DNA from: Pseudodesulfovibrio piezophilus C1TLV30
Lineage (GTDB): Bacteria; Desulfobacterota; Desulfovibrionia; Desulfovibrionales; Desulfovibrionaceae
Direction of reading: 5' to 3'
Length of the DNA stretch: 32,000 nucleotides
Assembly: GCF_000341895.1 (NCBI RefSeq)
Contig: NC_020409.1
Coordinates: 3,452,411 to 3,484,410, forward strand
Below are positions 4,114 through 29,695 of this stretch, piece after piece. The first letter of the stretch is position 1; each line of letters starts with the position of its first letter. The position numbers were made by a program, and so were the translations under genes. The notes beneath the pieces are model-generated. The model was given only the letters and a program-made list of their open reading frames with translations, was not told where the DNA came from and ran no database searches.

Positions 4114-4143
4114 AGCCCCCATCTCGTTGACGAGGTGGGGGCT
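4114..4143 (-). terminator. Rho-independent terminator of the OMP gene (possibly bidirectional)
   Basis: Hairpin GCCCCCATCTCG / CGAGGTGGGGGC (one G.U pair). On the minus strand it is followed by a T7 run (A-run 4107-4113 on plus). It lies between convergent genes. Confidence 0.7.
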
Positions 4144-4162
4144 TCTCGATGAAATTCACTCC

Positions 4163-4828
4163 CTAAAATTGATAGCGCAATCCAAGGAGAACTTTGTGAG
4201 TGCCGATATCCTTGACTTGACTCTCAACATTGACGTCTGTGGATGTCCCGGTAACTTTCTCTCCGTCTCCGTAATAATCATACCTGTAAGCAAGATCGAG
4301 AATAATTGATTCGGTTATGCTCCAACCGACGCCTGCGCCGAGGTTAAAAGCAAGGTTGGTTGAGGTCTTGCTGCCTGGATCGGAAATGGTGGAGGTGCTG
4401 AAGCTCTCTTCAACCCAGGCGACACCGACACCTCCGTTGATGAATGGTGTAAAGTCAGTTGAATTGTAAAAATCCCAGTAGACATTCAGCATGACAGTCT
4501 GCAGCGAGATGGTATCCGTTAACGACGAGTTGCTATCGCTGTATTTGTACTTGAAATCTCCGGTGTACATGTATTCGATTTCTGTGCGAATGGGGTATTC
4601 ATATCCCATCCAATCATATCCTGCGGCAAAGCCGATTGCTCCTGCTTCTTTATCGAATTTACTGCTTGAACTTGTTCCTGTTGCGTTGCCTGAGGTACTT
4701 TTATCTGCATCAAGGTACGAACCTCCCACCTTGATAGAACCGTAAAAGCCACCTTGGTCAGCAAATGCGAATCCCGTGAATGTGAAAAGTAAAGCCACGA
4801 TGATTGTAAGGCATTGAAGACTTTTCAT
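4163..4828 (-). CDS. Outer-membrane beta-barrel protein (OmpW/OMP_b-brl-like porin family)
   Basis: Signal peptide MKSLQCLTIIVALLFTFTGFAFA, alternating aromatic/Gly beta-strand pattern, and C-terminal ..GLRYQF ending in Phe. SD GGGAGA before the ATG at 4828; the longer ORF-track start at 4879 was rejected. Confidence 0.8.
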   Translation of the reverse strand: MKSLQCLTIIVALLFTFTGFAFADQGGFYGSIKVGGSYLDADKSTSGNATGTSSSSKFDKEAGAIGFAAGYDWMGYEYPIRTEIEYMYTGDFKYKYSDSNSSLTDTISLQTVMLNVYWDFYNSTDFTPFINGGVGVAWVEESFSTSTISDPGSKTSTNLAFNLGAGVGWSITESIILDLAYRYDYYGDGEKVTGTSTDVNVESQVKDIGTHKVLLGLRYQF

Positions 4829-15665: not shown

Positions 15666-16717
15666 TTGCGGACTCCCTGAAAGGAGTCCCGAAGGGATTC
15701 TGCGATTATTTTCAAGCCATATTCATTCATATGTCCTGTCCCAGGGGGGCTGTTGAAGAAGCCTCGTGGTAACGTCTTTTTTTGCAGGTACAGTTGAGTA
15801 AATCGTTTTGTCGTATCAATGAATCCCACGCCACTCTCTGTGCAGATGGTGTGAAATCGTTCAACAAGGTCTGCTTTGGTATCTTTGAGTTGAATTCTAC
15901 CATGCTTGAGGGAAGGGACACTTTTGGGGCAATAAATGAAAACAAGAAACCCACTGCTTTGTTGCTTCAGTCTCTGTAAGAGAAAACGCCATCCCTCTTC
16001 GAGGTTGTAGGATTTCGAGTCGGCAGGTGGTCTCTGAGTCGATTGTGGGGCTTGGGTTCTGGTGAGCCTGAGATCCGGCAGTCTCTGCGATGTCAGCAAA
16101 TAATAAAACGGACCGAGGCGAAGCGTTCTGGCAATAGATTTTAAAAACTGTTTCCTCTTTCCAGGGGCTATCTTTTTGTCAGTTAATGCCCATGGAGATG
16201 ATAAAAACTGTCCATGTCCGTTTATTGGGATATTGGGGAGCACGTCGTCCATACCGCTGAGCAGGATGACATGGCCGACTATGCCCTTCAGGGCTTTTTC
16301 ATATCGAGGTATTGCGTAGTAGTAGTCGGCTACCGTTGCACCGCTTCGTCCATATGTGATGCACGCGTATGGAGTTTCGGACGAGATGGCATTGAATTGA
16401 GCTGAGATTTTTTTGTTATCCGGAACTTGTAAGGATTCCGCATGGGAGTCTCCCCACAGGATGAATTTGGGTCTTGCTGACAAGACAAGGGCTTCTTCAT
16501 TCAAGGCAAAACCATGCTGACCATAGTGCGAGTCTGCCCAGCCTTCGCTTCTCCATGTCACAATTGATCCTGGAGTTGGGACATATTCTCCAATGGTTTG
16601 ATCAAACGTTTGGAGTTGAAGACTGTTTTTGAAGAAAAAGACCATGGCCCAGATGATCAGAGTTGACGAGAGTATCCCTATTCCCCAGTGGAAAATGGAA
16701 TTGCTGTTTTTTTTCAT
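15662..16717 (-). CDS. SGNH/GDSL-like periplasmic partner of the MBOAT (AlgJ/AlgX/PatB-like), single N-terminal TM
   Basis: TM anchor IFHWGIGILSSTLIIWAMVFFF. GDS(H) block ILWGDSHAESL. 4-nt overlap with the MBOAT gene. The start is uncertain: ATG 16717 or ATG 16855. Confidence 0.6.
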   Translation of the reverse strand: MKKNSNSIFHWGIGILSSTLIIWAMVFFFKNSLQLQTFDQTIGEYVPTPGSIVTWRSEGWADSHYGQHGFALNEEALVLSARPKFILWGDSHAESLQVPDNKKISAQFNAISSETPYACITYGRSGATVADYYYAIPRYEKALKGIVGHVILLSGMDDVLPNIPINGHGQFLSSPWALTDKKIAPGKRKQFLKSIARTLRLGPFYYLLTSQRLPDLRLTRTQAPQSTQRPPADSKSYNLEEGWRFLLQRLKQQSSGFLVFIYCPKSVPSLKHGRIQLKDTKADLVERFHTICTESGVGFIDTTKRFTQLYLQKKTLPRGFFNSPPGTGHMNEYGLKIIAESLRDSFQGVRK

Positions 16718-16888
16718 GGGTGGATCATCTGTTAATGGATTGAGAGACTCAGCATTTAGTTTGTATTTTCGTAACGTCCTAATAAACTTTTTGAAGTCAC
16801 TCAAGTCAATAAAAAAAGGCGGAATACAGGCTTGAGTGTGGGAGGGGATGTGCATGTTTTCTCACGATTGTCATGAAGGGTTTCTGGC

Positions 16889-17650
16889 ATGCATGTTGCT
16901 TTAACAAAAGAGACTTTTATGGAGCAGCAGTCAGGAACGATTGAGAAAATTGAGGGTGCGATGTTCGATCAAGAGGGTGTGTTGCTGGAGTTTTCACAAT
17001 GCGAGTATGCGGATATGGCTCGTTTGCAAGAAGTTCTTCGAAATAAAAGATATCAGGAAGATATTCCGGATGTCGTTATTTTTCTTGAACATACGGCATG
17101 TATCACAGTTGGCCGCAGCGGAGGATATGAGAATATACTCGCGGACAACGTTGCTTTGAAAAATAACGGGATAGCTGTTCATGAAACTCCCCGAGGGGGA
17201 AATATCACATATCATGGGCCGGGGCAGTTGGTTTGTTATCCGATTCTTTCATTGGAAGGAGAAAAACGGGATCTGCATCTCTATGCTCGCAATATGGAAG
17301 AGGTCATGATTCGCACAGTGGAGAGCTTTGGTATCCAAGCTGGGCGCAAACCCCAATACCCCGGAGTTTGGGTCGGGGAAAATAAGATCGGCGCAATGGG
17401 GATTGCTGTTCGAAAATGGACCACTATGCACGGTATCGCATTGAATGTATGTCCTGACCTGGACCATTTCTCCTTGATCGTGCCTTGTGGAATTGGTTCC
17501 CATGGTGTCACTTCCATGGCGGAAGTCCTGGGGTCTTCTATTGATATCAAGAGTGTTCGTAGTGAAATGCAAAGGCACTTTTCAGAAATTTTTGAAATCT
17601 CTCTCCATCCCGTTGAGTTGAAAGATCTTATTGAGGAGGAATCGTTGTGA
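16889..17650 (+). CDS. lipB: Lipoyl(octanoyl) transferase LipB
   Basis: VIFLEHTACITVGR.., RGGNITYHGPGQLVCYPIL, KIGAMGIAVRKWTTMHGIALNV. ATG 16919 is an alternative start. Confidence 0.9.
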   Translation: MHVALTKETFMEQQSGTIEKIEGAMFDQEGVLLEFSQCEYADMARLQEVLRNKRYQEDIPDVVIFLEHTACITVGRSGGYENILADNVALKNNGIAVHETPRGGNITYHGPGQLVCYPILSLEGEKRDLHLYARNMEEVMIRTVESFGIQAGRKPQYPGVWVGENKIGAMGIAVRKWTTMHGIALNVCPDLDHFSLIVPCGIGSHGVTSMAEVLGSSIDIKSVRSEMQRHFSEIFEISLHPVELKDLIEEESL

Positions 17651-18507
17651 TAAAACCGCGCTGGCTGGTGCTTCCAGCTCCCGATGCTCATGATATGAAT
17701 CGTATTCAGGATATTTTAGACAAGGGGCAGTTACACTCTGTGTGCGAAAGCGCCCAATGTCCGAATATTGGTGAGTGCTTTGCTCATAAGACCTGCACGT
17801 TCATGATTTTGGGAGATATCTGCACACGTAATTGTGCATTTTGTGCTGTCGCCCATGGTCATCCTCTCAGTCCTGATCCTCAGGAGCCGGGGATGGTAGG
17901 GGAGACAGCCAGGCAGTTGGGGTTGAAGCATGTGGTCGTCACTTCGGTAACTCGGGATGATCTTCCTGATGGTGGTGCGGAACATTTTGTGGCGACAATA
18001 CAAGCCATCAAGCATGAAAATCCGGATGCAACCGTGGAAGTCCTTATTCCTGATTTCGGAGGGCGGCGAGAGCCGCTTGAGAGTGTCCTTTCGGCGATGC
18101 CGGATGTCCTTAACCATAATATTGAAACAGTCCCCCGTCTCTATGATTCAGTTCGACCGGGAGCACGTTATGAGCGTTCCTTGCAGTTGATTAGGAATGT
18201 TTCCAACTCACGTTCCGATGAGCGGATTCTCACGAAATCAGGTCTGATGCTCGGACTCGGCGAAACACAAGAGGAAGTCGTTGCAACAATGGAGGATCTG
18301 CTTCAGGTCGGGTGTCGTATTGTGACTCTTGGACAATATCTTTGTCCCTCGTCTCGTCATCATCCTGTGGTCGAGTATGTTCATCCTGACACATTCAACC
18401 GATTGGCTGATATTGGCAAACAGCTTGGGTTCAAACAAGTGGTGGCAGGGCCGCTGGTGCGGAGTTCCTATCATGCTGCCGAAAGTTTCAAAGAGTTGCG
18501 GATGTGA
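17647..18507 (+). CDS. lipA: Lipoyl synthase LipA (radical SAM)
   Basis: KPRWL N-terminus. CESAQCPNIGEC (Cx4Cx5C) and CTRNCAFC (Cx3Cx2C) motifs. C-terminal RSSYHA. GTG start overlaps the lipB stop. Confidence 0.95.
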   Translation: MIKPRWLVLPAPDAHDMNRIQDILDKGQLHSVCESAQCPNIGECFAHKTCTFMILGDICTRNCAFCAVAHGHPLSPDPQEPGMVGETARQLGLKHVVVTSVTRDDLPDGGAEHFVATIQAIKHENPDATVEVLIPDFGGRREPLESVLSAMPDVLNHNIETVPRLYDSVRPGARYERSLQLIRNVSNSRSDERILTKSGLMLGLGETQEEVVATMEDLLQVGCRIVTLGQYLCPSSRHHPVVEYVHPDTFNRLADIGKQLGFKQVVAGPLVRSSYHAAESFKELRM

Positions 18508-18570: not shown

Positions 18571-19353
18571 ATGCGTGATTTTATCAAGATAACGCTTGTT
18601 GCCAATGCGGGTGTTTTTGTTGAATACGCAGGTCTTGGATTTCTTGTGGACGGTATTCACTCTGAAGGCGGTTCTCCCTTCAGTCCGGTTTCTTCGGTGG
18701 AGCTGGGACATATGCGGGAAGGCTCAGGTTTTTTCAAGAATTTGGATTACCTGCTTTTTACCCATGACCATCCTGACCATTTTTCTCCTCGGCTTGTTGC
18801 GGACCATATAGGGGAACGGCCTGCCAAGGGACTTTTCCTACCGGGTGAAACACGAAGTTCCGCTGACCATGGACGACTCTTTGACCGACTTCAGGAACGT
18901 GGTATCCCTTACTGGGCTGTGGGGCTTGAGCCTGGGAAGACACAGTGTTTTATCCTTGCCGATGATGTTACCCTCACTCTTCTCGGTGCATCACACATGG
19001 GGCCACAGTATGCACGCATTAGGAATACTTGTTTCCTGCTGACAGTGGGTGGGAAAAACCTGTTGTTTACGGGTGATGCTGATCCCGTTGAGCAAGACTT
19101 TGGTTTTGCATTGAAAGAAGAGGTGGTGGATGTGGCATTCGTGAATCCTCTTTTTTATCACCACCCCAAAGGGCAACACGTCATCAATGAGGTCTTTCGG
19201 CCCAGCACCCTTGTTATTTATCACATGCCTTTCATTCATACCGACACCACACCGCTTCTTTCCATGGTTAACCGGGACATTCAACGTCACGGACGGCCTG
19301 ATATGCCGGTCCATGTCTTTAATCAGGAGCAACAGTCTCTTCGGCTGTCGTGA
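18571..19353 (+). CDS. MBL-fold metallo-hydrolase
   Basis: HxHxDH motif (THDHPDH), a downstream GDAD and a His-containing C-terminal half. Substrate unknown. Confidence 0.7.
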   Translation: MRDFIKITLVANAGVFVEYAGLGFLVDGIHSEGGSPFSPVSSVELGHMREGSGFFKNLDYLLFTHDHPDHFSPRLVADHIGERPAKGLFLPGETRSSADHGRLFDRLQERGIPYWAVGLEPGKTQCFILADDVTLTLLGASHMGPQYARIRNTCFLLTVGGKNLLFTGDADPVEQDFGFALKEEVVDVAFVNPLFYHHPKGQHVINEVFRPSTLVIYHMPFIHTDTTPLLSMVNRDIQRHGRPDMPVHVFNQEQQSLRLS

Positions 19354-19388: not shown

Positions 19389-19434
19389 TGTTCAGAAATG
19401 GAACATTTTTGATGAGCAGTTCCAAAATAGAACA
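19389..19434. promoter_or_regulatory. Putative enhancer (UAS): two TGTTC-N7-GAACA-type palindromes upstream of bdh
   Basis: TGTTCagaaatgGAACA at 19389-19405 and aGTTCcaaaataGAACA at 19418-19434. The same motif occurs at 23090-23201 and 29488-29522. Confidence 0.55.
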
Positions 19435-19592
19435 GGTTTGTCGTGCCATGTGTGTGTCTTGGAACAAGAAACACATCACGAAAACATCATGTGCGTGACA
19501 TTTGTCTCCAAGACTGAATAAGCAGTGTTTTGAGGAAGGTACAGGCGCAAGAAGTCCTGAGCCTTGCTCTGATGTATTTCCTTTCTTTTTTT

Positions 19593-19608
19593 TGGCACAC
19601 CGGGTGCA
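19593..19608 (+). promoter_or_regulatory. Sigma-54 (-24/-12) promoter of the butanediol dehydrogenase gene
   Basis: TGGCACaccggGTGCA has correct GG-N10-GC spacing and lies 77 nt upstream of the ATG at 19685. Confidence 0.7.
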
Positions 19609-19684
19609 CTGTATGTTTTATGCCTTTGCACCCTCAATAGTTGCGGTCAAAATGTTTTATAACAGAGAAAAAAGAGAGGATTCA

Positions 19685-20761
19685 ATGAGCGAAACAATGC
19701 GAGCTGCCGTGTGGCATGGAAAGCAGGATGTCCGTGTTGAGACCGTTCCGGTTCCCCCTTCTCCATCAGCCGGTTGGGTCAAGATCAAAGTTGATTGGTG
19801 TGGTATCTGCGGTTCGGATTTGCATGAGTTCGTCGCCGGTCCGGTTTTCATTCCGACTGATGCTCCGCATCCCCTGACAGGAAAGCAGGGCAGTGTCATC
19901 CTCGGTCATGAGTTTACGGGAACAGTCGTGGAAGTTGGCGAGGGCGTCACCAATGTGAGTGTCGGTGATTTTGTGGCACCTGATGCCTGTCAGCATTGTG
20001 GCGAATGTATCACATGTCGTGCCGGGCGGTACAACGTCTGCGAGAAGCTGGCCTTCACAGGGCTGCATAATGATGGTGCTTTTGCAAAATATGTGAATAT
20101 ACCCAGCGAACTCTGCTATATATTACCAAATGGTATTTCCTCTGAGGCGGGGGCGTTGATCGAACCGCTGGCAACAGGGTACAAAGCCGTGCGTGAAGCT
20201 GGCTCCATTCTTGGAGAGACGGTTGTCATAATCGGGGCAGGGACCATTGGTTTAGGGACTCTGATGGCAGCCAGAGCGGCAGGCGCGGGTATGATAATCG
20301 TGCTGGAAATGTCAACCGTCCGGGCTGCAAAGGCCAAGGAATGTGGGGCTGATGTTGTTCTTAATCCGAATGAATGCGACCCTGTTGCTGAAATAAAAGC
20401 TTTGACCCAAGGGTCAGGTGCGGATGTTTCTTTCGAATGTGTCGGCAACAAATTCACCGGACCACTTGCCGTGGATGTGCTTCGTAATGCAGGGCGGGCG
20501 ATCATTGTCGGTATTTTTGAAGAATCCAGTTCATTCAATTTTTTCAGTTTAAGTGGGACAGACAAACGCGTTATAGGCACCTTGGCTTATACTTTGAGCG
20601 ATTTTCAGGGTGTTTCGACCCTGCTGGCGAACGGGCAGCTCAAGGCTGAACCCATGATTACCGGTCGGATACATCTTGAAGACATTGTGGAAAAAGGCTT
20701 TTGGGAATTGATCAATAACAAGGATGAGAACATCAAGATTATCGTCAGTCCAGGAGACTAG
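19685..20761 (+). CDS. Zn-dependent MDR alcohol dehydrogenase, 2,3-butanediol dehydrogenase / acetoin reductase type
   Basis: MRAAVWHGKQDVRVETVP..CGICGSDLHE..GHEFTG..CQHCGECITCRAG and Rossmann motif GAGTIGLG. SD AGAGAGGA before ATG 19685. The ORF-track extension to 19502 covers the promoter and was rejected. Confidence 0.8.
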   Translation: MSETMRAAVWHGKQDVRVETVPVPPSPSAGWVKIKVDWCGICGSDLHEFVAGPVFIPTDAPHPLTGKQGSVILGHEFTGTVVEVGEGVTNVSVGDFVAPDACQHCGECITCRAGRYNVCEKLAFTGLHNDGAFAKYVNIPSELCYILPNGISSEAGALIEPLATGYKAVREAGSILGETVVIIGAGTIGLGTLMAARAAGAGMIIVLEMSTVRAAKAKECGADVVLNPNECDPVAEIKALTQGSGADVSFECVGNKFTGPLAVDVLRNAGRAIIVGIFEESSSFNFFSLSGTDKRVIGTLAYTLSDFQGVSTLLANGQLKAEPMITGRIHLEDIVEKGFWELINNKDENIKIIVSPGD

Positions 20762-20896
20762 AAGGGGATAGGCATAGAGGCTCAACGCCTTCATCTCAAG
20801 GTGTGTTCGGGAGAGGGAGGTTCCCTTTTCTCGTCGGGGGAGTCTTGATGGTGATTATGATCACGGCACCGTTTATCACCTAAATATACAGAAAAT

Positions 20897-20936
20897 GAGG
20901 GCTCTCGGCGGTGCGGTCGAGTGCCCTCTTCTTATT
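20897..20936 (+). terminator. Candidate terminator hairpin after bdh
   Basis: GAGGGC-T-CTCG / CGAG-T-GCCCTC interrupted stem with a 10-nt loop, followed by TTCTTATTATC. Weak. Confidence 0.35.
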
Positions 20937-20940
20937 ATCG

Positions 20941-23013
20941 CTAGATTTGGATACGGTGTCGTTCCATTTTTGCATACAGGGTATTGCGCCCGATTCCCAG
21001 AGCTTTAGCCGTTTTACTAATGTTGCACGCATGAAAATTCAATGCCTCACGGATTGCGTCTTCCTCTCTCTTTTTGAGTTGGAATTCTTTGCTTGAGTTC
21101 GTATGCTTTGTGTTGATTCGGTGTCGGGCTTTGTCCAGAATGTGATGCGGGAGATTCTCCTCCCGGAGCCATGCATCGGAGAGGTTATTGATTGCATATT
21201 CTATGCAATTGACGAGTTCTCGAACATTTCCTGGCCATGAGTACGCCATGAAGGTCTTCGCCACTTCAGGGAGCATTCCTTCACAATGAATGCCAAATTC
21301 CGTGCAAAGACGGTTCAGATGATATTCGGCCAGGAGGACAATGTCATTTCCTCGTTCATGAAGGGAAGGGAGGGTGATTCCAACCACATTCAGGCGATAA
21401 AACAGGTCCTCTCGAAATTGGTTTTGTCTCACAAGTTCACGCAGATTCTTGTTGGTTGCCGCAATGATTTTCACATCCACGGACTGTGGAGTTGTGCCGC
21501 CCACAGGGACAACGGTCCTTTCTTCCAGCGCCCTCAGGAGACTGACTTGTTGCGAAAGTGGCATTTCAGAAATCTCATCCAGAAACAGGACTCCTTTGTC
21601 TGCCTGTTGGAATTTCCCTATACGGCCTTTTCTGGATGCTCCTGTAAACGATCCCCCGCAATACCCGAAGAGTTCACTTTGCACCAACTCTTCAGGGAAC
21701 GCGCCGCAATTAATTGCAATGAAGGGGTGCTGGGATCGTGGTCCGGCTTGGTGTATGCCACGGGCGAAGAGCTCCTTTCCGGTCCCTGATTCTCCATACA
21801 GGAGAACGGTTGATGGCGTCTTTGCCGCTTTGGCAGCCTGAAGAATTGATTGAGACATGGATCGGCTTGAATACAATATATGCTCAAATCCTTCCGGGGT
21901 GGTTTCAGAGGGGGGGATTGTTTCGAAGCATTCCTTTTTGGCAGGGACTGCGAATTGATGCGTGGTTTGTTTTTCGCAAATACTGACGATGGTATCCAGA
22001 TGGGTGCCGGTGAGACTGAAAACATTCAAGGCTCGCACGAATAAATCCGGGTTTATCCGACAGGGGATGACCGTCGGTTCATGTACTGAGGCATTTTTCG
22101 TCTGAGCTATGAAATCATCGTAATGAAAAAATTCCTCGGCCTGGCGACCACGGAGTGTCCCCCATGGAGTTCCGATCAATGCCTCGGCTGCACTGTTGGC
22201 ACTGAGGATTTTGCCTGATTTATCCAAGGAAAGAATGCCCGTCATTACGGAGTTGAACATTGAAGAAAAGAGCGTTCCCAGCTGACCTTCCAGTTCCGAG
22301 CAATAGAGGCGGCAGAGATGCTGCTCCAAGGCCCGTGCCGCTTGAAGAACAAGGTTCAGATTCTTAGAGTGATCCATGTTTGAAGGACCGGAAATATCAA
22401 AACATCCCCATATGCTGCCGTGTGGGTCCAGAATTGGGGCTGCTGTACAGCTCCAACTGTGATGGCTACGGCAGAAATGTTCTTCACCGAAAACCTGCAT
22501 GGGACGTCCTGTTGCCAAGGCCGTCCCTATGGCATTGGTTCCCACGCTTTCTTCTGCCCAATTGGCTCCTGGGCCAAAGTTCAACTTGTCAGCCTGCCGC
22601 AGGGTCTTCAGATCACCGCATGTCCGGGCCACACGGCCTTTGGCATTCGTGAATGTCATGAGCATTCCTTTGCCGCGGATCGCTTCATATGCCGTATTTT
22701 CGACATCGCCACAGATCTTTCCCAGTGTTGAGGTAAACGGCTCCAACTCTGTCATAGGTTTGAAATCCCAGCAATTTCTCGGGCCAGGATCAATGCCCAT
22801 TTTTTTACACCTGCCCCAGGAATCGATGATGTTCTCGTTCAGGCAACTGAGGTTGACCTGTCTCCCTTCCACAAAACGTTTCCACTGAGAATAGTTGACC
22901 TGCGAACCTCGCTGGCCGCGCAGGGGAGACCATGGTGAATGGGATGAAGGGGTTGCCTCAATATGGGACGCGCTGATTTCGAAGCCGTCATCGTTTCTAA
23001 GGAGTAAATGCAT
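20941..23013 (-). CDS. acoR: AcoR-like sigma-54-dependent transcriptional activator (N-terminal GAF-like sensor, PAS, AAA+, Fis HTH)
   Basis: GESGTGKELFARGIH, GSFTGA (intact F-T), LFLDEISEM, FREDLFYRLNV, WPGNVRELVN, HTH NISKTAKALGIGRNTLYAKM. ATG 23013 has SD GGAG 8 nt upstream. It is divergent from the aco operon. Confidence 0.85.
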   Translation of the reverse strand: MHLLLRNDDGFEISASHIEATPSSHSPWSPLRGQRGSQVNYSQWKRFVEGRQVNLSCLNENIIDSWGRCKKMGIDPGPRNCWDFKPMTELEPFTSTLGKICGDVENTAYEAIRGKGMLMTFTNAKGRVARTCGDLKTLRQADKLNFGPGANWAEESVGTNAIGTALATGRPMQVFGEEHFCRSHHSWSCTAAPILDPHGSIWGCFDISGPSNMDHSKNLNLVLQAARALEQHLCRLYCSELEGQLGTLFSSMFNSVMTGILSLDKSGKILSANSAAEALIGTPWGTLRGRQAEEFFHYDDFIAQTKNASVHEPTVIPCRINPDLFVRALNVFSLTGTHLDTIVSICEKQTTHQFAVPAKKECFETIPPSETTPEGFEHILYSSRSMSQSILQAAKAAKTPSTVLLYGESGTGKELFARGIHQAGPRSQHPFIAINCGAFPEELVQSELFGYCGGSFTGASRKGRIGKFQQADKGVLFLDEISEMPLSQQVSLLRALEERTVVPVGGTTPQSVDVKIIAATNKNLRELVRQNQFREDLFYRLNVVGITLPSLHERGNDIVLLAEYHLNRLCTEFGIHCEGMLPEVAKTFMAYSWPGNVRELVNCIEYAINNLSDAWLREENLPHHILDKARHRINTKHTNSSKEFQLKKREEDAIREALNFHACNISKTAKALGIGRNTLYAKMERHRIQI

Positions 23014-23089
23014 TCTCGATCTCCAGTACAAAACGAAAAAGGTTATAGACAATATTAAGTCTCTGACTCATCACCGGAATCTCTGTCAA

Positions 23090-23108
23090 GTGTTCACATT
23101 TCGAACAC
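23090..23108. promoter_or_regulatory. Putative AcoR enhancer site 1 (GTGTTC-N7-GAACAC)
   Basis: Perfect 6-bp arms GTGTTCacatttcGAACAC in the acoR/acoC divergent intergenic region. Confidence 0.6.
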
Positions 23109-23182
23109 AGTCCTACTCTTTTGCATCTTTTTTACTTTTAATATCAGCTAAATAAGTCCTTCTTGGTGCACCTTTGTCCTGA

Positions 23183-23201
23183 GTGTTCTACTCCAGAACA
23201 C
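23183..23201. promoter_or_regulatory. Putative AcoR enhancer site 2 (GTGTTC-N7-GAACAC)
   Basis: Perfect 6-bp arms GTGTTCtactccaGAACAC, 93 bp centre-to-centre from site 1 and about 70 bp upstream of the -24 element. Confidence 0.6.
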
Positions 23202-23263
23202 ACTTGCGGTTTTTTAGGGAGAGTTGTTTCTATAACTTACCGTAATTCAACATATAATCTTAC

Positions 23264-23279
23264 TGGCATAGCCATTGCT
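23264..23279 (+). promoter_or_regulatory. Sigma-54 (-24/-12) promoter of the aco operon
   Basis: TGGCATagccaTTGCT is a near-perfect match to TGGCAC-N5-TTGCW, 42 nt upstream of the ATG at 23321. Confidence 0.8.
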
Positions 23280-23320
23280 ATATTCTCAGCCAACTTCGTA
23301 AAAAAATAGGAGGATTGGCC

Positions 23321-24673
23321 ATGGCTCAACAAGTGATCATGCCCAAATGGGGCTTGACCATGAAAGAAGGAAAAGTTGTTCGCTGGCTTAAAGGTGAGGG
23401 TGAATCGGTTGATGCCGGTGAGCCTTTATTTGAAGTGGAAACGGACAAAATCACGAACTCGGTGGAAGCCCCTGCCAGTGGTGTCTTATCCCAAATCATA
23501 GTCCCTGAAGGTGAAACTGCCGAGGTCCAGGCTGTTTTGGCAGTTATTGCCGCGCCAGGAGAAAACCCTGACATAATACCAAGTGGATCGACGGCAACCG
23601 ACAACGTTGAATCTTCCGGCGATGCAGTGGCTGGCGAACCTGCCGTTGCTTCATCTCAGGCATCGGTTGAAGGCGGTGATTTTGTTCCGGCCATGCCTGC
23701 TGCTCGCAAATTGGCGAAGGAATTGAACGTTGCCCTGTCCACGGTTGTCGGAACCGGACCTCATGGAACAATTGTGATGAAAGATGTTCAGGCATCGGCT
23801 GACAGTGCTTTTGCCGGGATTAACGCCAGTGCCAAGGCAATTGAATTCGCCCGTAAAAATGGCATTGATCTCGGTCAGGTCTCGGGGACCGGTGATGACG
23901 GTCGAATTACCAAAGCCGACATCCTGCGTGCAATGAATCCGGTTTCCGATCAACAGGTATCATCCAATCAGCCTGTCATTGCTCAGGATACCATCGTGCC
24001 TATGGACGGTGTCCGCAAGCTTATTGGTGACAATATGCAGGCCAGCTTGACCAATGCGGCGCAGCTTTCCGTGTTCGTCGAAATTGACGCCACCGAAATG
24101 GTTTCCTTGCGCGCGGCGATTCTTGAACGGAACAAGCGCAACGCAGAATACAAGCTCTCATACAATGACATCGTTTCGTATGCTGTGTGTCGAGCTCTCA
24201 AGCGACATCCGATTATGAATTCGACCTTGCAGGACGATGGCATTCATCTGCACCAAAGTGTCAATCTTGGTATTGCTGTGGCCCTGCCAAACGGGCTTAT
24301 TGTGCCGAATATCAAGAATGCCGGAAGCTTGACGTTGGAGGAACTCAAGACAGAGATCCGGGATGTCGCAGGTCGGTCTCGGACCGGCGGTCTGAATATG
24401 GATGAAATATCCGGCGGCACCTTTACCATCAGTAATGTCAGCATGCTTGGTGTGGATGGTTTTACCCCCATTCTCAATCCTCCAGAGACAGGCATACTCG
24501 GTGTCGGGCGTATTGTTGAGAAACCGGCAGTCAAGGATGGCGAAATTCAGATTCGGCAAATGATGACCCTTTCTCTGACATTCAATCACATGACTACGGA
24601 TGGTGCGCCTGCCATGTCTTTCCTGCGCGAGTTGGGGGACATGCTGGAAACTCCGGGTCTGATGACATTGTAG
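23321..24673 (+). CDS. acoC: Dihydrolipoamide acetyltransferase (E2) of an acetoin-dehydrogenase-type complex; one lipoyl domain, two PSBD domains, catalytic domain
   Basis: Lipoyl-lysine motif VETDKIT (K codon 23447-23449). Two E3-binding-like segments. Catalytic ..LSLTFNHMTTDGAPAMSFL (H..DG). SD AGGAGG 7 nt before ATG 23321. Confidence 0.85.
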   Translation: MAQQVIMPKWGLTMKEGKVVRWLKGEGESVDAGEPLFEVETDKITNSVEAPASGVLSQIIVPEGETAEVQAVLAVIAAPGENPDIIPSGSTATDNVESSGDAVAGEPAVASSQASVEGGDFVPAMPAARKLAKELNVALSTVVGTGPHGTIVMKDVQASADSAFAGINASAKAIEFARKNGIDLGQVSGTGDDGRITKADILRAMNPVSDQQVSSNQPVIAQDTIVPMDGVRKLIGDNMQASLTNAAQLSVFVEIDATEMVSLRAAILERNKRNAEYKLSYNDIVSYAVCRALKRHPIMNSTLQDDGIHLHQSVNLGIAVALPNGLIVPNIKNAGSLTLEELKTEIRDVAGRSRTGGLNMDEISGGTFTISNVSMLGVDGFTPILNPPETGILGVGRIVEKPAVKDGEIQIRQMMTLSLTFNHMTTDGAPAMSFLRELGDMLETPGLMTL

Positions 24674-24680
24674 GTTCGTT

Positions 24681-25121
24681 ATGGCGCGGAAAAGATTTGC
24701 TGTTGAACTCGGTTATGCAGCCGATTTGCATGGTGAAGACATGACCAAGGCCGTGGTGCGAGCTGTTCGTGATGCTGTGTCCCGGATTTGTCTCTGTGGT
24801 CTTGTGGAAATATGTGGTCGTGATCGGTTTCAAGGCGTCTTTGTCCATGCTGATATCGCTGTTCCCCAGCCGGAACAGGTTGACCATTCGGCCGTGCTTG
24901 CCGCCATCCCCATTGGTGAAACTTCATTGAACGTGACTGTCGGCGGCATGAGTGTCCCCGGGATGGAAGTTCCCTGCTTTGCCCCTGGTGTCAGCAACAT
25001 AGTTGTTGCGTGCGCCGCGCTGACTGTTTCCATTGAGACGGACATGGCAAGTGAGGCTGATGAGGACTCGGAAAACAGGTGGATCGGATGTGCCGTGAAG
25101 CCGAATAACCCAGAGGAGTAA
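24681..25121 (+). CDS. Small conserved hypothetical protein (possibly Lin0512-family-like), embedded between E2 and E1-alpha
   Basis: 146 aa. N-terminus FAVELGYAADLHGEDMTKAVVRAVRDAV resembles my memory of the Lin0512_fam N-terminus (uncertain). Tightly packed: 7 nt after the acoC stop and 5 nt before the acoA ATG. Acidic tail. Confidence 0.55.
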   Translation: MARKRFAVELGYAADLHGEDMTKAVVRAVRDAVSRICLCGLVEICGRDRFQGVFVHADIAVPQPEQVDHSAVLAAIPIGETSLNVTVGGMSVPGMEVPCFAPGVSNIVVACAALTVSIETDMASEADEDSENRWIGCAVKPNNPEE

Positions 25122-25126
25122 ACACA

Positions 25127-26086
25127 ATGGCTCTGAGCAAGAAGACATTGATCAATATGTATGAAACCATGAACAGGATTCGTCTGTTCGAACTGAGACT
25201 GCAGGAACTTTTCGCAGCAAGCGAAATTCCCGGTTTCGTCCATCTTTATCTCGGCGAGGAAGCGGTTGCCACAGGAGCCTGTGCCGCGCTTACCGATGCC
25301 GACATGATTACCAGTACACATCGCGGGCATGGGCATCTTTTGGCAAAAGGTGGAGATTTGAAGCTCATGATGGCTGAAATATTCGGGCGGAAAACCGGCT
25401 ACTGCAAAGGCAAAGGCGGTTCCATGCACATTGCCGATTTGGATCTCGGTATTCTCGGGGCCAACGGTATTGTGGGAGGTGGTGGCCCTCTTGCCGCAGG
25501 AGCGGCTCTGGCAGCCAAATACAGAAAAAGCAAAGATGTCGCCATGTGCTTTTTCGGTGATGGTGCCTCCAATCAGGGAACAACCCAGGAGTCCCTGAAC
25601 ATGGCGAGCGCCTGGAAGCTGCCTCTGGTCTTCATCAATGAAAATAATGGGTACGGTATTTCCTGCCCCCAATGCAAATCCATGGCTGTCGTGGATATTG
25701 CGGATCGCGCAGCTGCATATGATATGCCCGGCGTAGTGGTTGACGGAAACGACGTGCTCGCTGTGCATGAAGCCGTTTCCGAGGCCGTCAAACGTGCGCG
25801 TCGCGGAGAAGGCCCGTCATTGGTTGAGTGCAAAACATATCGCTGGCGTGGTCACTTTGAAGGGGATGCCTGCACATACCGTTGCGATGAAGAGCTGAAA
25901 GAGTGGAAAGCCAAAGACCCCATTCCTCGTTTCGAGGCCAAATTGATAGAAAAGAAGACACTGACTCAGAGTGAAGCGGATACAATAAAAGAACGCATTG
26001 CTCAGGATGTTGATGAAGCTGTGACGTACGCCAAGGAAAGTCCGATGCCGCCTGTCAGTGCATTGATGGATGACGTGTACGCCTAA
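25127..26086 (+). CDS. acoA: Acetoin:acceptor oxidoreductase / 2-oxoacid dehydrogenase E1 alpha subunit (TPP-binding)
   Basis: LYLGEEAVATG, TSTHRGHGH, TPP motif GDGASNQG..(27 aa)..NENNGYG, YRWRGHFEGD. SD GAGGAG. Confidence 0.9.
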   Translation: MALSKKTLINMYETMNRIRLFELRLQELFAASEIPGFVHLYLGEEAVATGACAALTDADMITSTHRGHGHLLAKGGDLKLMMAEIFGRKTGYCKGKGGSMHIADLDLGILGANGIVGGGGPLAAGAALAAKYRKSKDVAMCFFGDGASNQGTTQESLNMASAWKLPLVFINENNGYGISCPQCKSMAVVDIADRAAAYDMPGVVVDGNDVLAVHEAVSEAVKRARRGEGPSLVECKTYRWRGHFEGDACTYRCDEELKEWKAKDPIPRFEAKLIEKKTLTQSEADTIKERIAQDVDEAVTYAKESPMPPVSALMDDVYA

Positions 26087-26130
26087 GTCGGCTGCGGTTT
26101 TTACGAATCATAAATCCAACGGAGTGAATA

Positions 26131-27102
26131 ATGTCCGAAAAAACATATCTTCAGGCTCTCAACGAAGCATTGAGCCAGGAAATGGAGCGCGATGAGAATG
26201 TCTTCATCATAGGTGAAGACGTGGGGCAATTTGGTGGTTGTTTTGGGGTCACCCAGGGGCTTTTTGACACGTTCGGGAGTGACCGTGTCATGGATACGCC
26301 AATTACAGAAAGCGCAATTGTCGGCGCAGCCACAGGTGCGGCCGCATGCGGTCTTCGCCCTGTAGCGGAGTTGATGTTTGTGGATTTCATCGGTGTTTCT
26401 ATGGATCAGCTCTTTAATCAGGCTGCGAAAATGCGTTACATGTTCGGTGGTAAAACCACGGTTCCCATGACGTTGCGTGCACCTCAAGGCGCAGGTATCG
26501 GTGCTGCTGCCCAGCATTCTCAGTGCCTGGAATCCTGGTTCATGAATATTCCGGGACTCAAAGTCGTTATCCCATCGACCCCTTACGATGCCAAGGGGCT
26601 GTTGATAAGTGCAATTCGCGATGACAACCCGGTTGTCTTTCTTGAGCACAAGATGTTGTATGGTGTCAGTGGAGAAGTGCCGGACGAGAGTTATACCATC
26701 GAGATAGGCAAGGCTGACATCAAGCGTGAGGGCAGTGATGTGACTATCGTTGCGACGTCGCAGATGGTCTATGCGGCGCTTGAGGCAGCTGAAAAACTCA
26801 AAGCCGACGGTATTGATGCCGAAGTCGTCGACCCACGGAGCTTGTTACCACTGGACAAGGAGACGATTTTTGACTCAGTCAGAAAGACGCATGCCTTGGT
26901 TGTTGTCCATGAGGCGGTCCAGTTCGCTGGTCCGGGAGCAGAAATAGCTGCCATGGCGGCAGAAGAAATTCTTGAGTATCTGGATGCTCCCATCAAGCGT
27001 GTTGGTGCTCCATTCTGCCCGGTTCCCTTCTCGCCTCCTCTTGAGCAGCATTATATCCCCGGTGCAGAGAATATCATCGAGGCCGTCAAGAGTATTCGTT
27101 AA
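26131..27102 (+). CDS. acoB: Acetoin dehydrogenase E1 beta subunit
   Basis: YLQALNEALSQEMERDENVFIIGEDVG.., DTPITESAIVGAATGAA, transketolase-C-like C-terminal half. SD GGAG. Confidence 0.9.
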   Translation: MSEKTYLQALNEALSQEMERDENVFIIGEDVGQFGGCFGVTQGLFDTFGSDRVMDTPITESAIVGAATGAAACGLRPVAELMFVDFIGVSMDQLFNQAAKMRYMFGGKTTVPMTLRAPQGAGIGAAAQHSQCLESWFMNIPGLKVVIPSTPYDAKGLLISAIRDDNPVVFLEHKMLYGVSGEVPDESYTIEIGKADIKREGSDVTIVATSQMVYAALEAAEKLKADGIDAEVVDPRSLLPLDKETIFDSVRKTHALVVVHEAVQFAGPGAEIAAMAAEEILEYLDAPIKRVGAPFCPVPFSPPLEQHYIPGAENIIEAVKSIR

Positions 27103-27117
27103 ACAAACTTTGGTTGA

Positions 27118-27145
27118 GAGGGGAACGGCTTTTGCCGTTCCCCTC
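27118..27145 (+). other. Intra-operon 12-bp perfect stem-loop between acoB and the acoX-like gene
   Basis: GAGGGGAACGGC-tttt-GCCGTTCCCCTC. No downstream U-tract. Immediately followed by SD GAGGAG (27148-27153). Confidence 0.8.
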
Positions 27146-27169
27146 GTGAGGAGAGATGAGGGCGTATCA

Positions 27170-28165
27170 TTGAGTATTGCAGCAATCTTGGCTAATCCAG
27201 CTTCCGGTAAAGATATTCGTCGGTTAGTGGCTCATGGGAGTGTCTTCGACAATCAGGAGAAAGTTCGTATGGTGCGAAGGCTTATTCTGGGCCTTGAACG
27301 TGCCGGAGTCACAAAAATTTTATATATGCCTGATGCCTATGCGATCATCCCTCGTGCCTTGAATTCTATTTCGCCGTCCATTCCTGTCGAAGCAGTAGAA
27401 ATGCCCATACGGAACACTGATGCCGACACCTCCCTCGCAGCAGAGCTTATGGAAACGCTCGGTGCACAGAGCCTTGTTGTTCTCGGGGGTGACGGGACCA
27501 GCAGAGTGGCCTGCAAAGGGACGCTGAACGTCCCCATCCTGCCACTTTCCACTGGGACAAATAATGTTTTTCCTGTCATGTCTGAGGCTACGGTGGCGGG
27601 GTTGGCCGCAGGACTGGTTGCCTGCGGCCGCCTCCCCCGGCAGGAATGTTGTTATCAGTCTTGTATGCTTGATATTGTTTTTGGTGAGACGGTCATTGAT
27701 ATGGCTTTGGTTGATGCCGCAGTCTATGATGACGTTTTTTTCGCATCAAGAGCGGTTTGGGACATGCACAAGGTTCCGCAACTTTTTCTGACACGATGTA
27801 ATCCTACCTCCATTGGGTTGTCTGCCATAGGCGGGCAGCTGCGTGACATCCGTCCTCAAGAGCCGAGGGGATTGGCATTAAAGCTGGGAAAACCGGCTTC
27901 GCTCACTGTTACCGCGTCCATTGCGCCAGGGATGTTCTCCGATATTCCCATCCGTGAAATCGAAGACATGCCCCCCGGAGTTGTTTTCCCTATCGCATCC
28001 AGCACAGGTTTGATAGCGGTGGATGGAGAACGAGAGATTGAAATTTCTCAAGATTCCAATGCCGGTATTCGATTGAATACCGGCGGCCCTCTGGTTATCG
28101 ATGTGGAAAAAACCATGGCCTTGGCCAGAGAACAGGCCTGCTTCGTGACAAACACATATTCATAG
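27170..28165 (+). CDS. acoX: AcoX-like ATP-NAD kinase / diacylglycerol-kinase-fold protein
   Basis: N-terminus (TTG) SIAAILANPASGKDIRRLV and the GGDGT signature (VVLGGDGTSRV). TTG 27170 chosen; GTG 27146 is possible. The ORF-track start 26972 overlaps acoB and the hairpin and was rejected. Confidence 0.7.
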   Translation: MSIAAILANPASGKDIRRLVAHGSVFDNQEKVRMVRRLILGLERAGVTKILYMPDAYAIIPRALNSISPSIPVEAVEMPIRNTDADTSLAAELMETLGAQSLVVLGGDGTSRVACKGTLNVPILPLSTGTNNVFPVMSEATVAGLAAGLVACGRLPRQECCYQSCMLDIVFGETVIDMALVDAAVYDDVFFASRAVWDMHKVPQLFLTRCNPTSIGLSAIGGQLRDIRPQEPRGLALKLGKPASLTVTASIAPGMFSDIPIREIEDMPPGVVFPIASSTGLIAVDGEREIEISQDSNAGIRLNTGGPLVIDVEKTMALAREQACFVTNTYS

Positions 28166-28174
28166 GGAGAAAAC

Positions 28175-28483
28175 ATGAGTCATCCATTGAAAGCTGCTTT
28201 TATTTTTCTTGCTCCAGGAGGAGATCCGAAAGTTCATAGAAATTGGGTTATTACAGAAGGAGTTGAATTACTCTCCATTGCCGTGAGTGATTATGGACAG
28301 GCTGAGACTCTGGCTCGTGAGTTGGTTGAGCAAGAAGAAATAGCAGCCATAGAACTCTGTGGAGGATTTGGAGCCGCAGGAACGGCGCGGGTTGCGGCGG
28401 CAGTGAATGTTCCTGTCGGAGCTGTCCGTTTCGATATTCATCCCGGTCTGAATAATCTCAGTGGGGATACGCTCTTTGGTTAA
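28175..28483 (+). CDS. Conserved hypothetical 102-aa protein, last gene of the aco operon
   Basis: ATG lies 9 nt after the acoX-like stop, with SD GGGAGA. It contains IELCGGFGAAG. No family assigned with confidence. Confidence 0.55.
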   Translation: MSHPLKAAFIFLAPGGDPKVHRNWVITEGVELLSIAVSDYGQAETLARELVEQEEIAAIELCGGFGAAGTARVAAAVNVPVGAVRFDIHPGLNNLSGDTLFG

Positions 28484-28542
28484 TCCGACCTCGTGAGCGG
28501 AATCAGATAGTAAGCGAAAAGAATTTCTTTCGGCGCTTCTTG

Positions 28543-28932
28543 TCAGCCGTCAGCTAGAATGTGATTCGGAGTGACAAAGCAGGTGAATGTACCGGTGAAG
28601 ACCTGTTCGTCTTCACAGAAAACATCGACGTGTACGGTGTGTTTTCGCTCGTGTGGAGTCGTGTCGTGCGCTTTTGCGACCAAGGTATTTCCAATGCGGG
28701 AAGGCTTCAGAAATCGTGTTTCAGCAGCACCCAGTACAACATTGGGATGGTTGACTGCGAGCATGGCCGCATAGTCGGCCAGGCCGAATATGAAGCCACC
28801 ATGGATCAGCCCGCTTGAGTCTGCACCCATTTCTTCAGTGCATTCCATGCGCACATGACTTGTCCCGTTCTCCACCATGATCGGTTCGCCGCATAAAGTT
28901 CGATCGATTGTATGATGGGTTTGAATATTCAT
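28543..28932 (-). CDS. PaaI/YbgC-type hotdog-fold thioesterase
   Basis: ..GLIHGGFIFGLADYAAMLAV.. is typical of PaaI-family thioesterases. 129 aa from ATG 28932; the longer ORF-track start 29019 was rejected. Confidence 0.75.
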   Translation of the reverse strand: MNIQTHHTIDRTLCGEPIMVENGTSHVRMECTEEMGADSSGLIHGGFIFGLADYAAMLAVNHPNVVLGAAETRFLKPSRIGNTLVAKAHDTTPHERKHTVHVDVFCEDEQVFTGTFTCFVTPNHILADG

Positions 28933-29030
28933 CTTTTCCCTTTTGCTTGAGTGCCAGAAATCCTTGTTTTGAAAAAGCTTCCAAGGGCAGGAAGATGATA
29001 GTCTCCTGCCCTTGGACAAATATTTACCGA

Positions 29031-29357
29031 CTAATCAAACAGGTCTTCCAACTCGTCAAAAACATAATGCATGTACATGACCTTCGGTGAGCCTCCCATG
29101 GATATGGCTAACATTGCGGCCTGCATTATTTCTTCCTTGCTCGCGCCATGACTGGCCGCCCCTTGGATGTGGAGCGAGATGCACATCTCGCACTGGGACA
29201 TCATGGAACAGGCAACGTGAATCAGTTCCTGCGTTTTATGATCAATGGGTCCAAATTCGCTGATTTCTTTGGTGAAGGCAAGGTAATTGGGGAACACGTT
29301 GCCAGCACGCTGTGTCATCTTGGCCAAAGTCCCCGCTGCTTTTTCTGCTGCATCCAT
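29031..29357 (-). CDS. Carboxymuconolactone decarboxylase (AhpD-like) family protein
   Basis: 108 aa with the CMD core motif CxxCxxxH (QCEMCISLH). SD AAAGGAG before the ATG. Confidence 0.8.
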   Translation of the reverse strand: MDAAEKAAGTLAKMTQRAGNVFPNYLAFTKEISEFGPIDHKTQELIHVACSMMSQCEMCISLHIQGAASHGASKEEIMQAAMLAISMGGSPKVMYMHYVFDELEDLFD

Positions 29358-29396
29358 GAACCGACTCCTTTGTTAAATGTTAAGATGTAACAAGTA

Positions 29397-29412
29397 AGCA
29401 AAGAGCATGCCT
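29397..29412 (-). promoter_or_regulatory. Sigma-54 (-24/-12) promoter of the CMD-thioesterase operon
   Basis: The minus strand reads AGGCATgctctTTGCT with correct GG-N10-GC spacing, about 40 nt upstream of the ATG at 29357. Confidence 0.7.
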
Positions 29413-29487
29413 CAACATCCTTTGGCATGGACGGGCTCTTTTTCATGTAAATATGGGCTTATGGCAATACTCGGAGTGTCTATCTTC

Positions 29488-29522
29488 TGTTCCAGATGTG
29501 AACATTGATCGAGAATTGAACA
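29488..29522. promoter_or_regulatory. Putative enhancer: two adjacent TGTTC-N7-GAACA-type palindromes upstream of the CMD operon
   Basis: TGTTCcagatgtGAACA at 29488-29504 and TGaTCgagaattGAACA at 29506-29522, about 85-100 bp upstream of the -24 element. Confidence 0.55.
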
Positions 29523-29572
29523 CTCTTTCGTGTGCTTTTCCGCCAAGAAGGGAAGGGCACGCAAAAGAAAAA

Positions 29573-29595
29573 GGGCTGTGATTGAATCACAGCCC
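29573..29595 (-). terminator. Rho-independent terminator of tRNA-Leu
   Basis: GGGCTGTGATT / AATCACAGCCC hairpin. On the minus strand it is followed by TTTTTCTTTT. Confidence 0.75.
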
Positions 29596-29608
29596 TTATT
29601 TCATTCTA

Positions 29609-29695
29609 TGGTGCCGAAGAGAAGACTCGAACTTCCACGGGATTGCTCCCACTAGACCCTGAACCTAGCGTGTCTACCAATTCCACCACTTCGGC
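29609..29695 (-). tRNA. tRNA-Leu (anticodon CAG), class II with a long variable arm and encoded CCA
   Basis: The minus strand reads GCCGAAG-TG-GTGGAATTGGTAGACAC-G-CTAGG-TTCAGGG-TCTAG-TGGGAGCAATCCCGT-GGAAG-TTCGAGT-CTTCT-CTTCGGC-A-CCA. Acceptor, anticodon and T arms all pair. Confidence 0.9.

Follow-up and report, generated by a model that had tools for sequence, protein, structure and literature searches.

A 32,000-nucleotide stretch of DNA from Pseudodesulfovibrio piezophilus C1TLV30 (NC_020409.1, positions 3,452,411 to 3,484,410; its full length is referred to below as the window) very likely holds a regulon with which a Maridesulfovibrio-like sulfate reducer catabolises acetoin/2,3-butanediol under the control of an AcoR-type sigma-54 activator encoded at 20941-23013. 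The predicted targets are the butanediol dehydrogenase gene bdh, the aco operon with the order E2-Lin0512-E1alpha-E1beta-AcoX-DUF6506, and a two-gene unit for a CMD protein and a thioesterase, and lipB-lipA-MBL (MBL, metallo-beta-lactamase-fold protein) is very probably a target of the same activator. Such a regulon would couple oxidation by bdh, carbon-carbon cleavage by E1/E2/AcoX, cofactor supply by lipB-lipA and the AhpD-like plus thioesterase pair. The bdh, aco and CMD promoters are each accompanied by two palindromes of one type, and motif pairs are found at matching places, with promoter-specific spacing, in 17 related loci from three orders (Desulfovibrionaceae, Desulfospira and Desulfacinum).

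The putative enhancer sites and sigma-54 promoters are given here with scores from a weight matrix, which was built from 32 sites outside the window and assigns 13.4-20.8 bits to the six palindromes.

16885-16900, + strand: fourth sigma-54 promoter TGGCATgcatgTTGCT, ahead of lipB-lipA-MBL
19389-19405, unstranded: bdh distal enhancer site TGTTCAGAAATGGAACA, 20.8 bits
19418-19434, unstranded: bdh proximal enhancer site AGTTCCAAAATAGAACA, one mismatch, 13.4 bits
19593-19608, + strand: bdh sigma-54 promoter TGGCACaccggGTGCA, whose -12 box, GTGCA, is unusual
23090-23108, unstranded: aco distal site GTGTTCACATTTCGAACAC, GTGTTC-N7-GAACAC, core TGTTCACATTTCGAACA at 23091-23107, 20.8 bits
23183-23201, unstranded: aco proximal site GTGTTCTACTCCAGAACAC, GTGTTC-N7-GAACAC, core TGTTCTACTCCAGAACA at 23184-23200, 16.8 bits
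23264-23279, + strand: sigma-54 promoter of the aco operon TGGCATagccaTTGCT, GG-N10-GC
29397-29412, - strand: sigma-54 promoter of the CMD-thioesterase unit AGGCATgctctTTGCT, GG-N10-GC
29488-29504, unstranded: CMD proximal enhancer site TGTTCCAGATGTGAACA, 19.8 bits
29506-29522, unstranded: CMD distal enhancer site TGATCGAGAATTGAACA, one mismatch, 16.2 bits

The six palindromes and three of these -24/-12 elements had been pointed out in an earlier reading of the sequence (the original prediction), and their coordinates, orientation and GG-N10-GC spacing could all be read directly. The same holds for the arms of the aco sites (GTGTTC/GAACAC) and for the centre-to-centre spacing within pairs, which is 29 bp at bdh, 93 bp at aco and 18 bp at CMD. 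Site centres lie 197 and 168 bp (bdh), 166 and 73 bp (aco), and 103 and 85 bp (CMD) from the -24 GG, a range of 73-197 bp. We propose the 17-bp consensus TGTTCGAAATTCGAACA, i.e., TGT-N11-ACA. Of perfect TGTTC-N7-GAACA, the window has four copies (0.03 expected), and four were not reached in any of 100 shuffles; with up to one mismatch there are eight matches (1.29 expected), six of which are the reported sites. The promoter pattern GGCAY-N6-TGCW was found seven times in the window, against an expectation of 1.39, and four of the seven matches are intergenic and correctly oriented, with GG and GC exactly 10 bp apart on the strand of the regulated gene. The original prediction had described a regulon of three promoters. 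All three stand; the count does not, since there are at least four promoters and the one of lipB-lipA-MBL had been overlooked.

The other three GGCAY-N6-TGCW matches are antisense in aco coding DNA (25714-25728, 26513-26527 and 27391-27405, all on the - strand); the TTGC core is absent from them and no palindromes lie nearby, and they are probably chance matches. Between the aco proximal site and its promoter, a site for IHF was only looked for by eye: the region holds a semi-conserved AT-rich block with no match to the IHF consensus, and nothing is claimed for it.

Conservation of the motif upstream of orthologous operons, the check which the original prediction had called for, was examined in nine full-length ortholog loci from a genome collection (L001-L009, 51-67% identity), in eight loci reached via homologous proteins (L040-L047, among them Desulfospira and Desulfacinum at 42-43% identity) and in a single metagenome locus found by a metagenome scan with LipB (L048). 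The 17 loci mentioned above, in which the motif proved to be conserved, are not near-identical copies of one another, as AcoR identity ranges from 42 to 76% and the flanking DNA is unalignable; the closest named AcoR relatives are those of Desulfovibrio sp. UCD-KL4C and Maridesulfovibrio zosterae (75-76% identity). At aco, the centre of the proximal site is 72-74 bp away from the -24 GG in the 15 loci with two sites, and this holds for every locus of the Desulfovibrionaceae type. Its distal partner lies beyond it by 82 bp in L009, 93 bp in the window and 102-104 bp in 13 loci, and since these steps are about one helical turn, the rotational phase is kept. The CMD pair is spaced by 18 bp in the window and 13 Desulfovibrionaceae-type loci, and by 30-31 bp in Desulfospira and Desulfacinum, which belong to two distant orders. 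The bdh pair is 29-30 bp apart in the window, L008, L009 (two copies), L040 and L041, at 135-192 bp from the GG in the comparison across loci. Promoter types recur as well: GGCAY-N5-GTGCA at bdh in L009 (two copies), L040 and L041, and the CMD promoter as GGCAYRCTCYTTGCT in most relatives and as GGCATAATCCTTGCT in L040.

The acoR-aco intergenic region could be aligned across eight genomes, with a mean column identity of 58%. Almost all invariant columns fall in GTCAAGTGTTC...GAACA, GT.C...GAACA, TGGCA...TTGC and the ribosome-binding site, the first of which, the aco distal block, is invariant in eight of eight genomes. By the pattern of its columns, this is a textbook phylogenetic footprint. 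As a control, we used 29 loci (441 kb) around unrelated sigma-54 activators. Five sites of at least 16 bits occur in them, and none of their 40 promoter-like matches has a site 40-300 bp upstream.

One locus, L009, from a metagenome-assembled genome of the Desulfovibrionaceae, has three extra units of motif plus promoter by acoR (2306-2537, 4086-4359 and 17487-17756). In one of them the sites, spaced by 81 bp, precede another operon that contains E2; in one, an 18-bp pair stands some 250 bp ahead of a promoter for an unidentified gene; and one is an additional promoter of the bdh type, whose pair is spaced by 30 bp. The regulon is thus larger in some genomes. A full AcoR/aco/CMD cluster with motifs is also present in a bin labelled as the spirochaete Oceanispirochaeta (L002), and a 66%-identical AcoR in a eukaryotic set (P0015, an EukProt transcriptome). 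Horizontal transfer, mis-binning or contamination is the likely source of both.

The fourth promoter differs from the other three in the placement of its candidate sites. The genes and motif-like sites concerned are the following.

16961-17650, + strand: lipB, octanoyl/lipoyl transferase (Pfam LplA-B_cat; NCBIfam LipB models above cut-off)
17407-17423, unstranded: motif-like site in lipB TGTTCGAAAATGGACCA, 17.3 bits, candidate half of a downstream pair
17450-17466, unstranded: second motif-like site in lipB TGTCCTGACCTGGACCA, 10.0 bits in the window
17647-18507, + strand: lipA, lipoyl synthase, radical SAM (NCBIfam lipoyl synthase, 406 bits, above cut-off)
18571-19353, + strand: metallo-beta-lactamase-fold protein (Pfam Lactamase_B_2)

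The lipB reading frame is open from 16889, and both the sequence, with a GAGGG ribosome-binding site, and the ortholog alignment make ATG 16961 its likely start. Synteny links the MBL gene to bdh and lipA in L001, L040, L041 and L044. The sigma-54 promoter of lipB is conserved in six genomes (the window, L001, L040, L041, L044 and L048): its 19-mer CTGGCATGCATGTTGCTTT is identical in L001, and close variants precede lipB in the other four. In the window, no motif of at least 4 bits was found within 500 bp upstream of it (16400-16920), and lipB is likewise located away from CMD and devoid of an upstream site in L040, L041 and L048. The two sites inside lipB have their centres exactly +529 and +572 bp from the promoter GG, 43 bp apart, in the window, L040, L041 and L048, despite lipB leader sequences that have diverged among these four genomes, and the second site scores 17.9-18.4 bits in the latter three. 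In L001 and L044, lipB is divergent from CMD and an 18-bp pair lies between both promoters, 121-147 bp from that of lipB; in such an arrangement the CMD pair would serve both. The lipB genes of these two genomes have other codons at the intragenic positions, which reach at most 8.3 bits in L001 and less than 9 bits in L044. The intragenic and the upstream pair are thus exactly complementary in six of six genomes, and this pattern suggests an intragenic enhancer that acts from downstream.

We consider it about an even question whether the pair at 17407-17466 is an intragenic downstream enhancer of the lipB promoter, as its position and conservation suggest. More tentatively, an enhancer about 500 bp downstream, in the codons of two conserved catalytic-motif peptides, may have replaced the shared CMD/lipB enhancer upon rearrangement in one Maridesulfovibrio lineage. 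There is also a real, if somewhat less than even, chance that the pair is a coding by-product of the LipB peptides AVRKWTT and CPDLEHF and has no regulatory role, in which case the lipB promoter would either be outside the control of AcoR or depend on activation from solution or from the far-off bdh sites. Several observations favour such a by-product and so weigh against an enhancer. Both intragenic sites overlap strongly conserved LipB motifs, and the second is weak in the window, at 10 bits only. The four genomes with the intragenic pair are related (66-75% LipB identity) and form one clade, so that the 4-versus-2 pattern may reflect just two evolutionary events. Identical codons are in excess in the intragenic sites (64-82% versus 40-52% elsewhere), but this excess is based on about 10 codons and is not statistically secure. 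On the other hand, coding constraint was controlled for with unrelated lipB genes from the LipB metagenome scan, and the 79 generic lipB loci are all free of sites of at least 10 bits inside lipB. Moreover, the first peptide is largely unchanged in L001 and L044 (AVRNWV in L001), yet it is encoded there by other codons. The complementarity of the two pairs and the identical offsets behind diverged leaders speak against a by-product as well.

If functional, the intragenic pair would give a clear example from nature of a sigma-54 enhancer lying within the coding sequence of the gene that it controls. Action from downstream or from afar has precedents: Mullin and Newton are said to have described, in 1993, Caulobacter FlbD ftr elements located downstream of sigma-54 flagellar promoters, and NtrC enhancers reportedly act over hundreds of base pairs (Reitzer and Magasanik, in 1986). 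The ftr elements lie at about +100, while the candidate sites in lipB are at about +500, in codons of conserved catalytic motifs. A sigma-54 promoter for lipA, between the intragenic pair and that gene, was considered and rejected, as 17381-17680 contains no GG-N10-GC. The cluster comes with a linked lipoylation gene in every case, though one of varying type: genomes of the Maridesulfovibrio type (the window, L001, L040, L041 and L044) have lipB-lipA, and a 325-aa lplA lies directly upstream of CMD in L042, L043 and L045-L047 (Pseudodesulfovibrio, D. inopinatus, Desulfospira and Desulfacinum).

The palindromes are best assigned to the AcoR-like activator. Two sigma-54 activators are encoded in the window.

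12580-13980, - strand: second sigma-54 activator, PAS-AAA+-HTH_8, adjoining CBS/CitMHS transporter genes
20941-23013, - strand: AcoR-like sigma-54 activator, MimR_N/GAF-PAS sensor, AAA+ with GSFTGA, HTH_8

The AcoR-like protein comprises GAF (146-232), PAS (about 248-304), AAA+ (381-546; PF00158, E=1.4e-66) and HTH (647-685) domains and has no receiver domain. Its GSFTGA loop, which the original prediction had called intact, is read in the translation and is a listed natural variant of the GAFTGA-type loop (PMC6615313). The N-terminal region matches the GAF/PAS part of DhaR (4lrx, E=6.5e-12). NCBIfam matches (PrdR, DhaR, AtoC and others) are all below cut-offs, and no AcoR model is among the matches listed; relatives of the protein are labelled acetoin dehydrogenase operon activator in JGI and NCBI sources. 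The gene adjoins those of E1 alpha, E1 beta and E2, and this synteny is kept in 15 related loci with an aco operon. Its HTH LGIGRNTLYAKM, with the helix LGIGRNTLY, is invariant in orthologs from 76% down to 40% overall identity, except for A or S at the tenth position and a K-M tail that differs only in the most distant orders. No regulator other than the AcoR-like activator is found with the motif in every case, and in L008, where its ortholog stands beside bdh alone, the palindrome pair is still present. This co-occurrence makes the assignment well supported, and together with the control loci it upholds the original prediction that one motif, putatively bound by AcoR, is common to the bdh, aco and CMD promoters.

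It is improbable that the palindromes are real sites of some other factor, be it a global redox or carbon regulator or the activator at 12580-13980, with AcoR using other sites. Co-occurrence is what the assignment to AcoR is built on, a second HTH_8 activator is encoded only 7 kb away, and Bacillus AcoR binds GAGACA/TGTCTC repeats, so that the label AcoR predicts no particular motif. However, the second activator was rejected as the palindrome binder. It is not syntenic in relatives, with no ortholog found by tblastn in any of the nine genome loci and no equivalent in the gene lists of eight further loci (L044 has an unrelated CBS-PAS sigma-54 regulator beside acoR), and the motif persists in loci that lack it; its recognition helix LGWGRSTLWRKM is also unlike that of AcoR. 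Other factors in general are opposed by the restriction of the sites to sigma-54 promoters next to acoR, with none at such promoters in the 441-kb control, by the pair retained in L008, and by the acoR-aco alignment, which holds no other conserved block fit to be an AcoR site. That the palindromes and -24/-12 matches are chance or dispersed-repeat copies has next to no probability: short palindromes and GG-N10-GC do arise by chance, as the three antisense matches in aco probably did, but four perfect sites against 0.03 expected, with position, pairing and spacing kept in 17 loci of three orders amid unalignable flanks, are conservation data by which this explanation is already refuted.

In the model that we favour, control by the AcoR-like activator, dimers of the protein would bind the 17-bp palindromes via the C-terminal Fis-type HTH, two sites per target promoter in a promoter-specific arrangement. 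The inducer, for which acetoin or a related C4 ketol or diol is the probable candidate, would be detected by the MimR_N/GAF-PAS sensor, upon which the bound dimers would form an AAA+ ring; DNA looping would then let the GSFTGA loops meet the sigma-54 RNA polymerase at the -24/-12 promoter, whose opening would be driven by ATP hydrolysis. These steps are established for enhancer-binding proteins. Desulfovibrionales generally have sigma-54 and many activators (PMC4641369). Within the regulon, lipB-lipA would supply the lipoyl cofactor for E2.

Some points weigh against this model. What the genomes display directly are the sequences, their conservation and spacing, and the co-occurrence with the activator; binding, inducer, looping and sigma-54 dependence we infer from them. 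Because the weight matrix was derived from the orthologous loci, counts made there are circular, and the independent loci are the window and the controls. No gene for E3 (dihydrolipoamide dehydrogenase, AcoL) was found among the annotated open reading frames of the window or in the clusters of eight Pfam-annotated relatives, and for a cluster without E3 the exact substrate and the electron route are uncertain. In addition, the preprint on P. mercurii ND132, in the passages concerned, indicates that use of acetoin by this strain was never tested (bioRxiv 10.1101/2022.10.17.512643).

The original prediction had also suggested autoregulation of acoR. The start of the gene (ATG 23013) was confirmed to lie 77 bp from the aco distal site (23090), and this proximity aside, autoregulation is unsupported: a consensus scan of 22950-23330 gave no sigma-70-like promoter for acoR, and no -24/-12 match was found there on the acoR strand. 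The only feature to be noted is GTCAAG (23085-23090), which abuts the 5' side of the aco distal palindrome and is invariant in eight of eight genomes, outside the symmetric motif. Read on the acoR strand, as CTTGAC, it resembles a -35 box. It is possible, as a speculation, that occupancy of the site represses acoR.

Systems of this kind, in which an AcoR-type enhancer-binding protein acts with sigma-54, are already known. In Bacillus, AcoR and sigma-L govern acoABCL from a -24/-12 promoter whose upstream activating sequence, a palindrome, lies at a distance of about 80-100 bp (PMC10018347; PMC12648084). As in B. subtilis and B. thuringiensis, the sigma-54 activator of the window is encoded next to an acetoin dehydrogenase operon with palindromic upstream sites. 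However, the Bacillus operator GAGACA-N4-GAGACA..TGTCTC-N4-TGTCTC is one composite of about 30 bp (PMC10018347 supplement; PMC12648084), whereas the window has two separate 17-bp TGTTC-N7-GAACA palindromes per promoter and no match to GAGACA-N0-20-TGTCTC. The predicted regulon also differs from that of Bacillus in extending over four units, bdh, CMD-thioesterase and lipoylation genes included, and in a cluster without acoL (E3).

The system resembles that of Cupriavidus necator/Alcaligenes eutrophus, Klebsiella and Pseudomonas putida in regulator type, acoX in the operon, sigma-54 dependence and divergent acoR. A NifA-like TGT-N10-12-ACA is reportedly present upstream of acoX in A. eutrophus. 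Unlike these proteobacterial systems, the one described here has a specific conserved motif with defined architectures and a MimR_N/GAF sensor; for P. putida, the AcoR binding site was stated by the authors to be not known (PMC10107126). Palindromes of the form TGT-N10-12-ACA are the common site type of sigma-54 activators, and the TGT...ACA dyad, the Fis-type HTH and the location 70-200 bp upstream are shared with NifA/FhlA-type and clostridial motifs (PMC6615313). The N11 spacer, in place of the TGT-N10-ACA of NifA/FhlA, the half-site extended to TGTTC and the pairs spaced by 18, 29-30 or 82/93/103 bp set the present motif apart.

There is also a likeness to Pelobacter (Syntrophotalea) carbinolicus, whose cluster, according to the passages describing it, contains aco, acoX, an MDR butanediol dehydrogenase, acoS/lipB, acyl-CoA-acting proteins and acoR paralogs (PMC3543383). 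Both are clusters of an anaerobic deltaproteobacterial type that join aco, butanediol dehydrogenase and lipoate genes; going by the same passages, P. carbinolicus has acoL and thiamine genes, while the window has Lin0512, DUF6506 and CMD-thioesterase instead. No regulatory motif is mentioned in these passages, nor in those of the ND132 preprint that report an orthologous operon with a putative sigma-54 regulator (bioRxiv 10.1101/2022.10.17.512643). The D. vulgaris sigma-54 regulome paper has no text on AcoR, acetoin or TGTTC/GAACA, and a 2025 cross-phylum sigma-54 survey has no acetoin entry. A literature search for AcoR binding, regulon or motif returned only work on Bacillus and on Phytobacter, where a single site was inferred by similarity to the Bacillus operator, and a text search for TGTTC/GAACA/sigma54 returned primer-type matches only. 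The recognition sequence and the regulon composition are not described in the literature that was searched. What goes beyond the routine is the strict conservation of enhancer geometries specific to each promoter class and, possibly, the intragenic enhancer of lipB. For the AcoR-type activators of sulfate reducers and of their relatives, the analysis offers a recognition motif and a promoter architecture that can be tested, and it extends the proposed regulon to cofactor supply by lipB-lipA and to an AhpD-like plus thioesterase pair of unknown role. A possible use would be as an acetoin- or butanediol-responsive switch for anaerobes.

The remaining target genes, and a terminator next to them, are arranged as follows.

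19685-20761, + strand: bdh, Zn-dependent (R,R)-2,3-butanediol dehydrogenase-like (Pfam ADH_N/ADH_zinc_N)
23321-24673, + strand: E2 acetyltransferase (Pfam), first gene of the aco operon (23321-28483)
24681-25121, + strand: Lin0512-family protein (Pfam), aco operon
25127-26086, + strand: E1 alpha (Pfam), aco operon
26131-27102, + strand: E1 beta (Pfam), aco operon
about 27113-28165, + strand: AcoX, NAD-kinase-like (Pfam), aco operon
28175-28483, + strand: DUF6506 (Pfam), aco operon
28543-28932, - strand: PaaI-like hotdog thioesterase (4HBT), second gene of the CMD unit, likely start ATG 28932, orthologs of 129-130 aa
29031-29357, - strand: CMD/AhpD-like protein with a CxxC motif (CEMC), 80-94% identical in L001-L005
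29571-29597, - strand: intrinsic terminator with a 12-bp stem and T run, 3' of tRNA-Leu (29609-29695, - strand)

By Pfam, E1/E2/AcoX have an architecture of the acetoin dehydrogenase type, and the gene order of the aco operon is identical in L001-L005, L007, L009 and L040-L047. The top solved relative of Bdh is an (R,R)-butanediol dehydrogenase (6ie0, E=3e-76; the runner-up has 1e-49). The E3 that is missing from the cluster may be encoded elsewhere in the genome. The CxxC AhpD-like CMD protein and the PaaI-like thioesterase are encoded together in every case, under an AcoR-type promoter of their own. As a weaker speculation, the E3-less aco complex might use the CMD protein to re-oxidise dihydrolipoyl-E2, presumably in a manner analogous to mycobacterial AhpD.

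The bdh start at ATG 19685 is backed by a strong ribosome-binding site, a conserved MSE N-terminus and NCBI orthologs of 358 aa. The public JGI gene call is 382 aa long and starts at ATG 19613, inside the -12 promoter element, and its correction exemplifies improved genome annotation. The terminator at 29571-29597, which lies shortly upstream of the CMD enhancer pair, marks the boundary of the CMD control region and would shield the CMD promoter from tRNA read-through. Further upstream in the window, genes for an outer-membrane beta-barrel protein and NhaB accompany the second sigma-54 activator (12580-13980).

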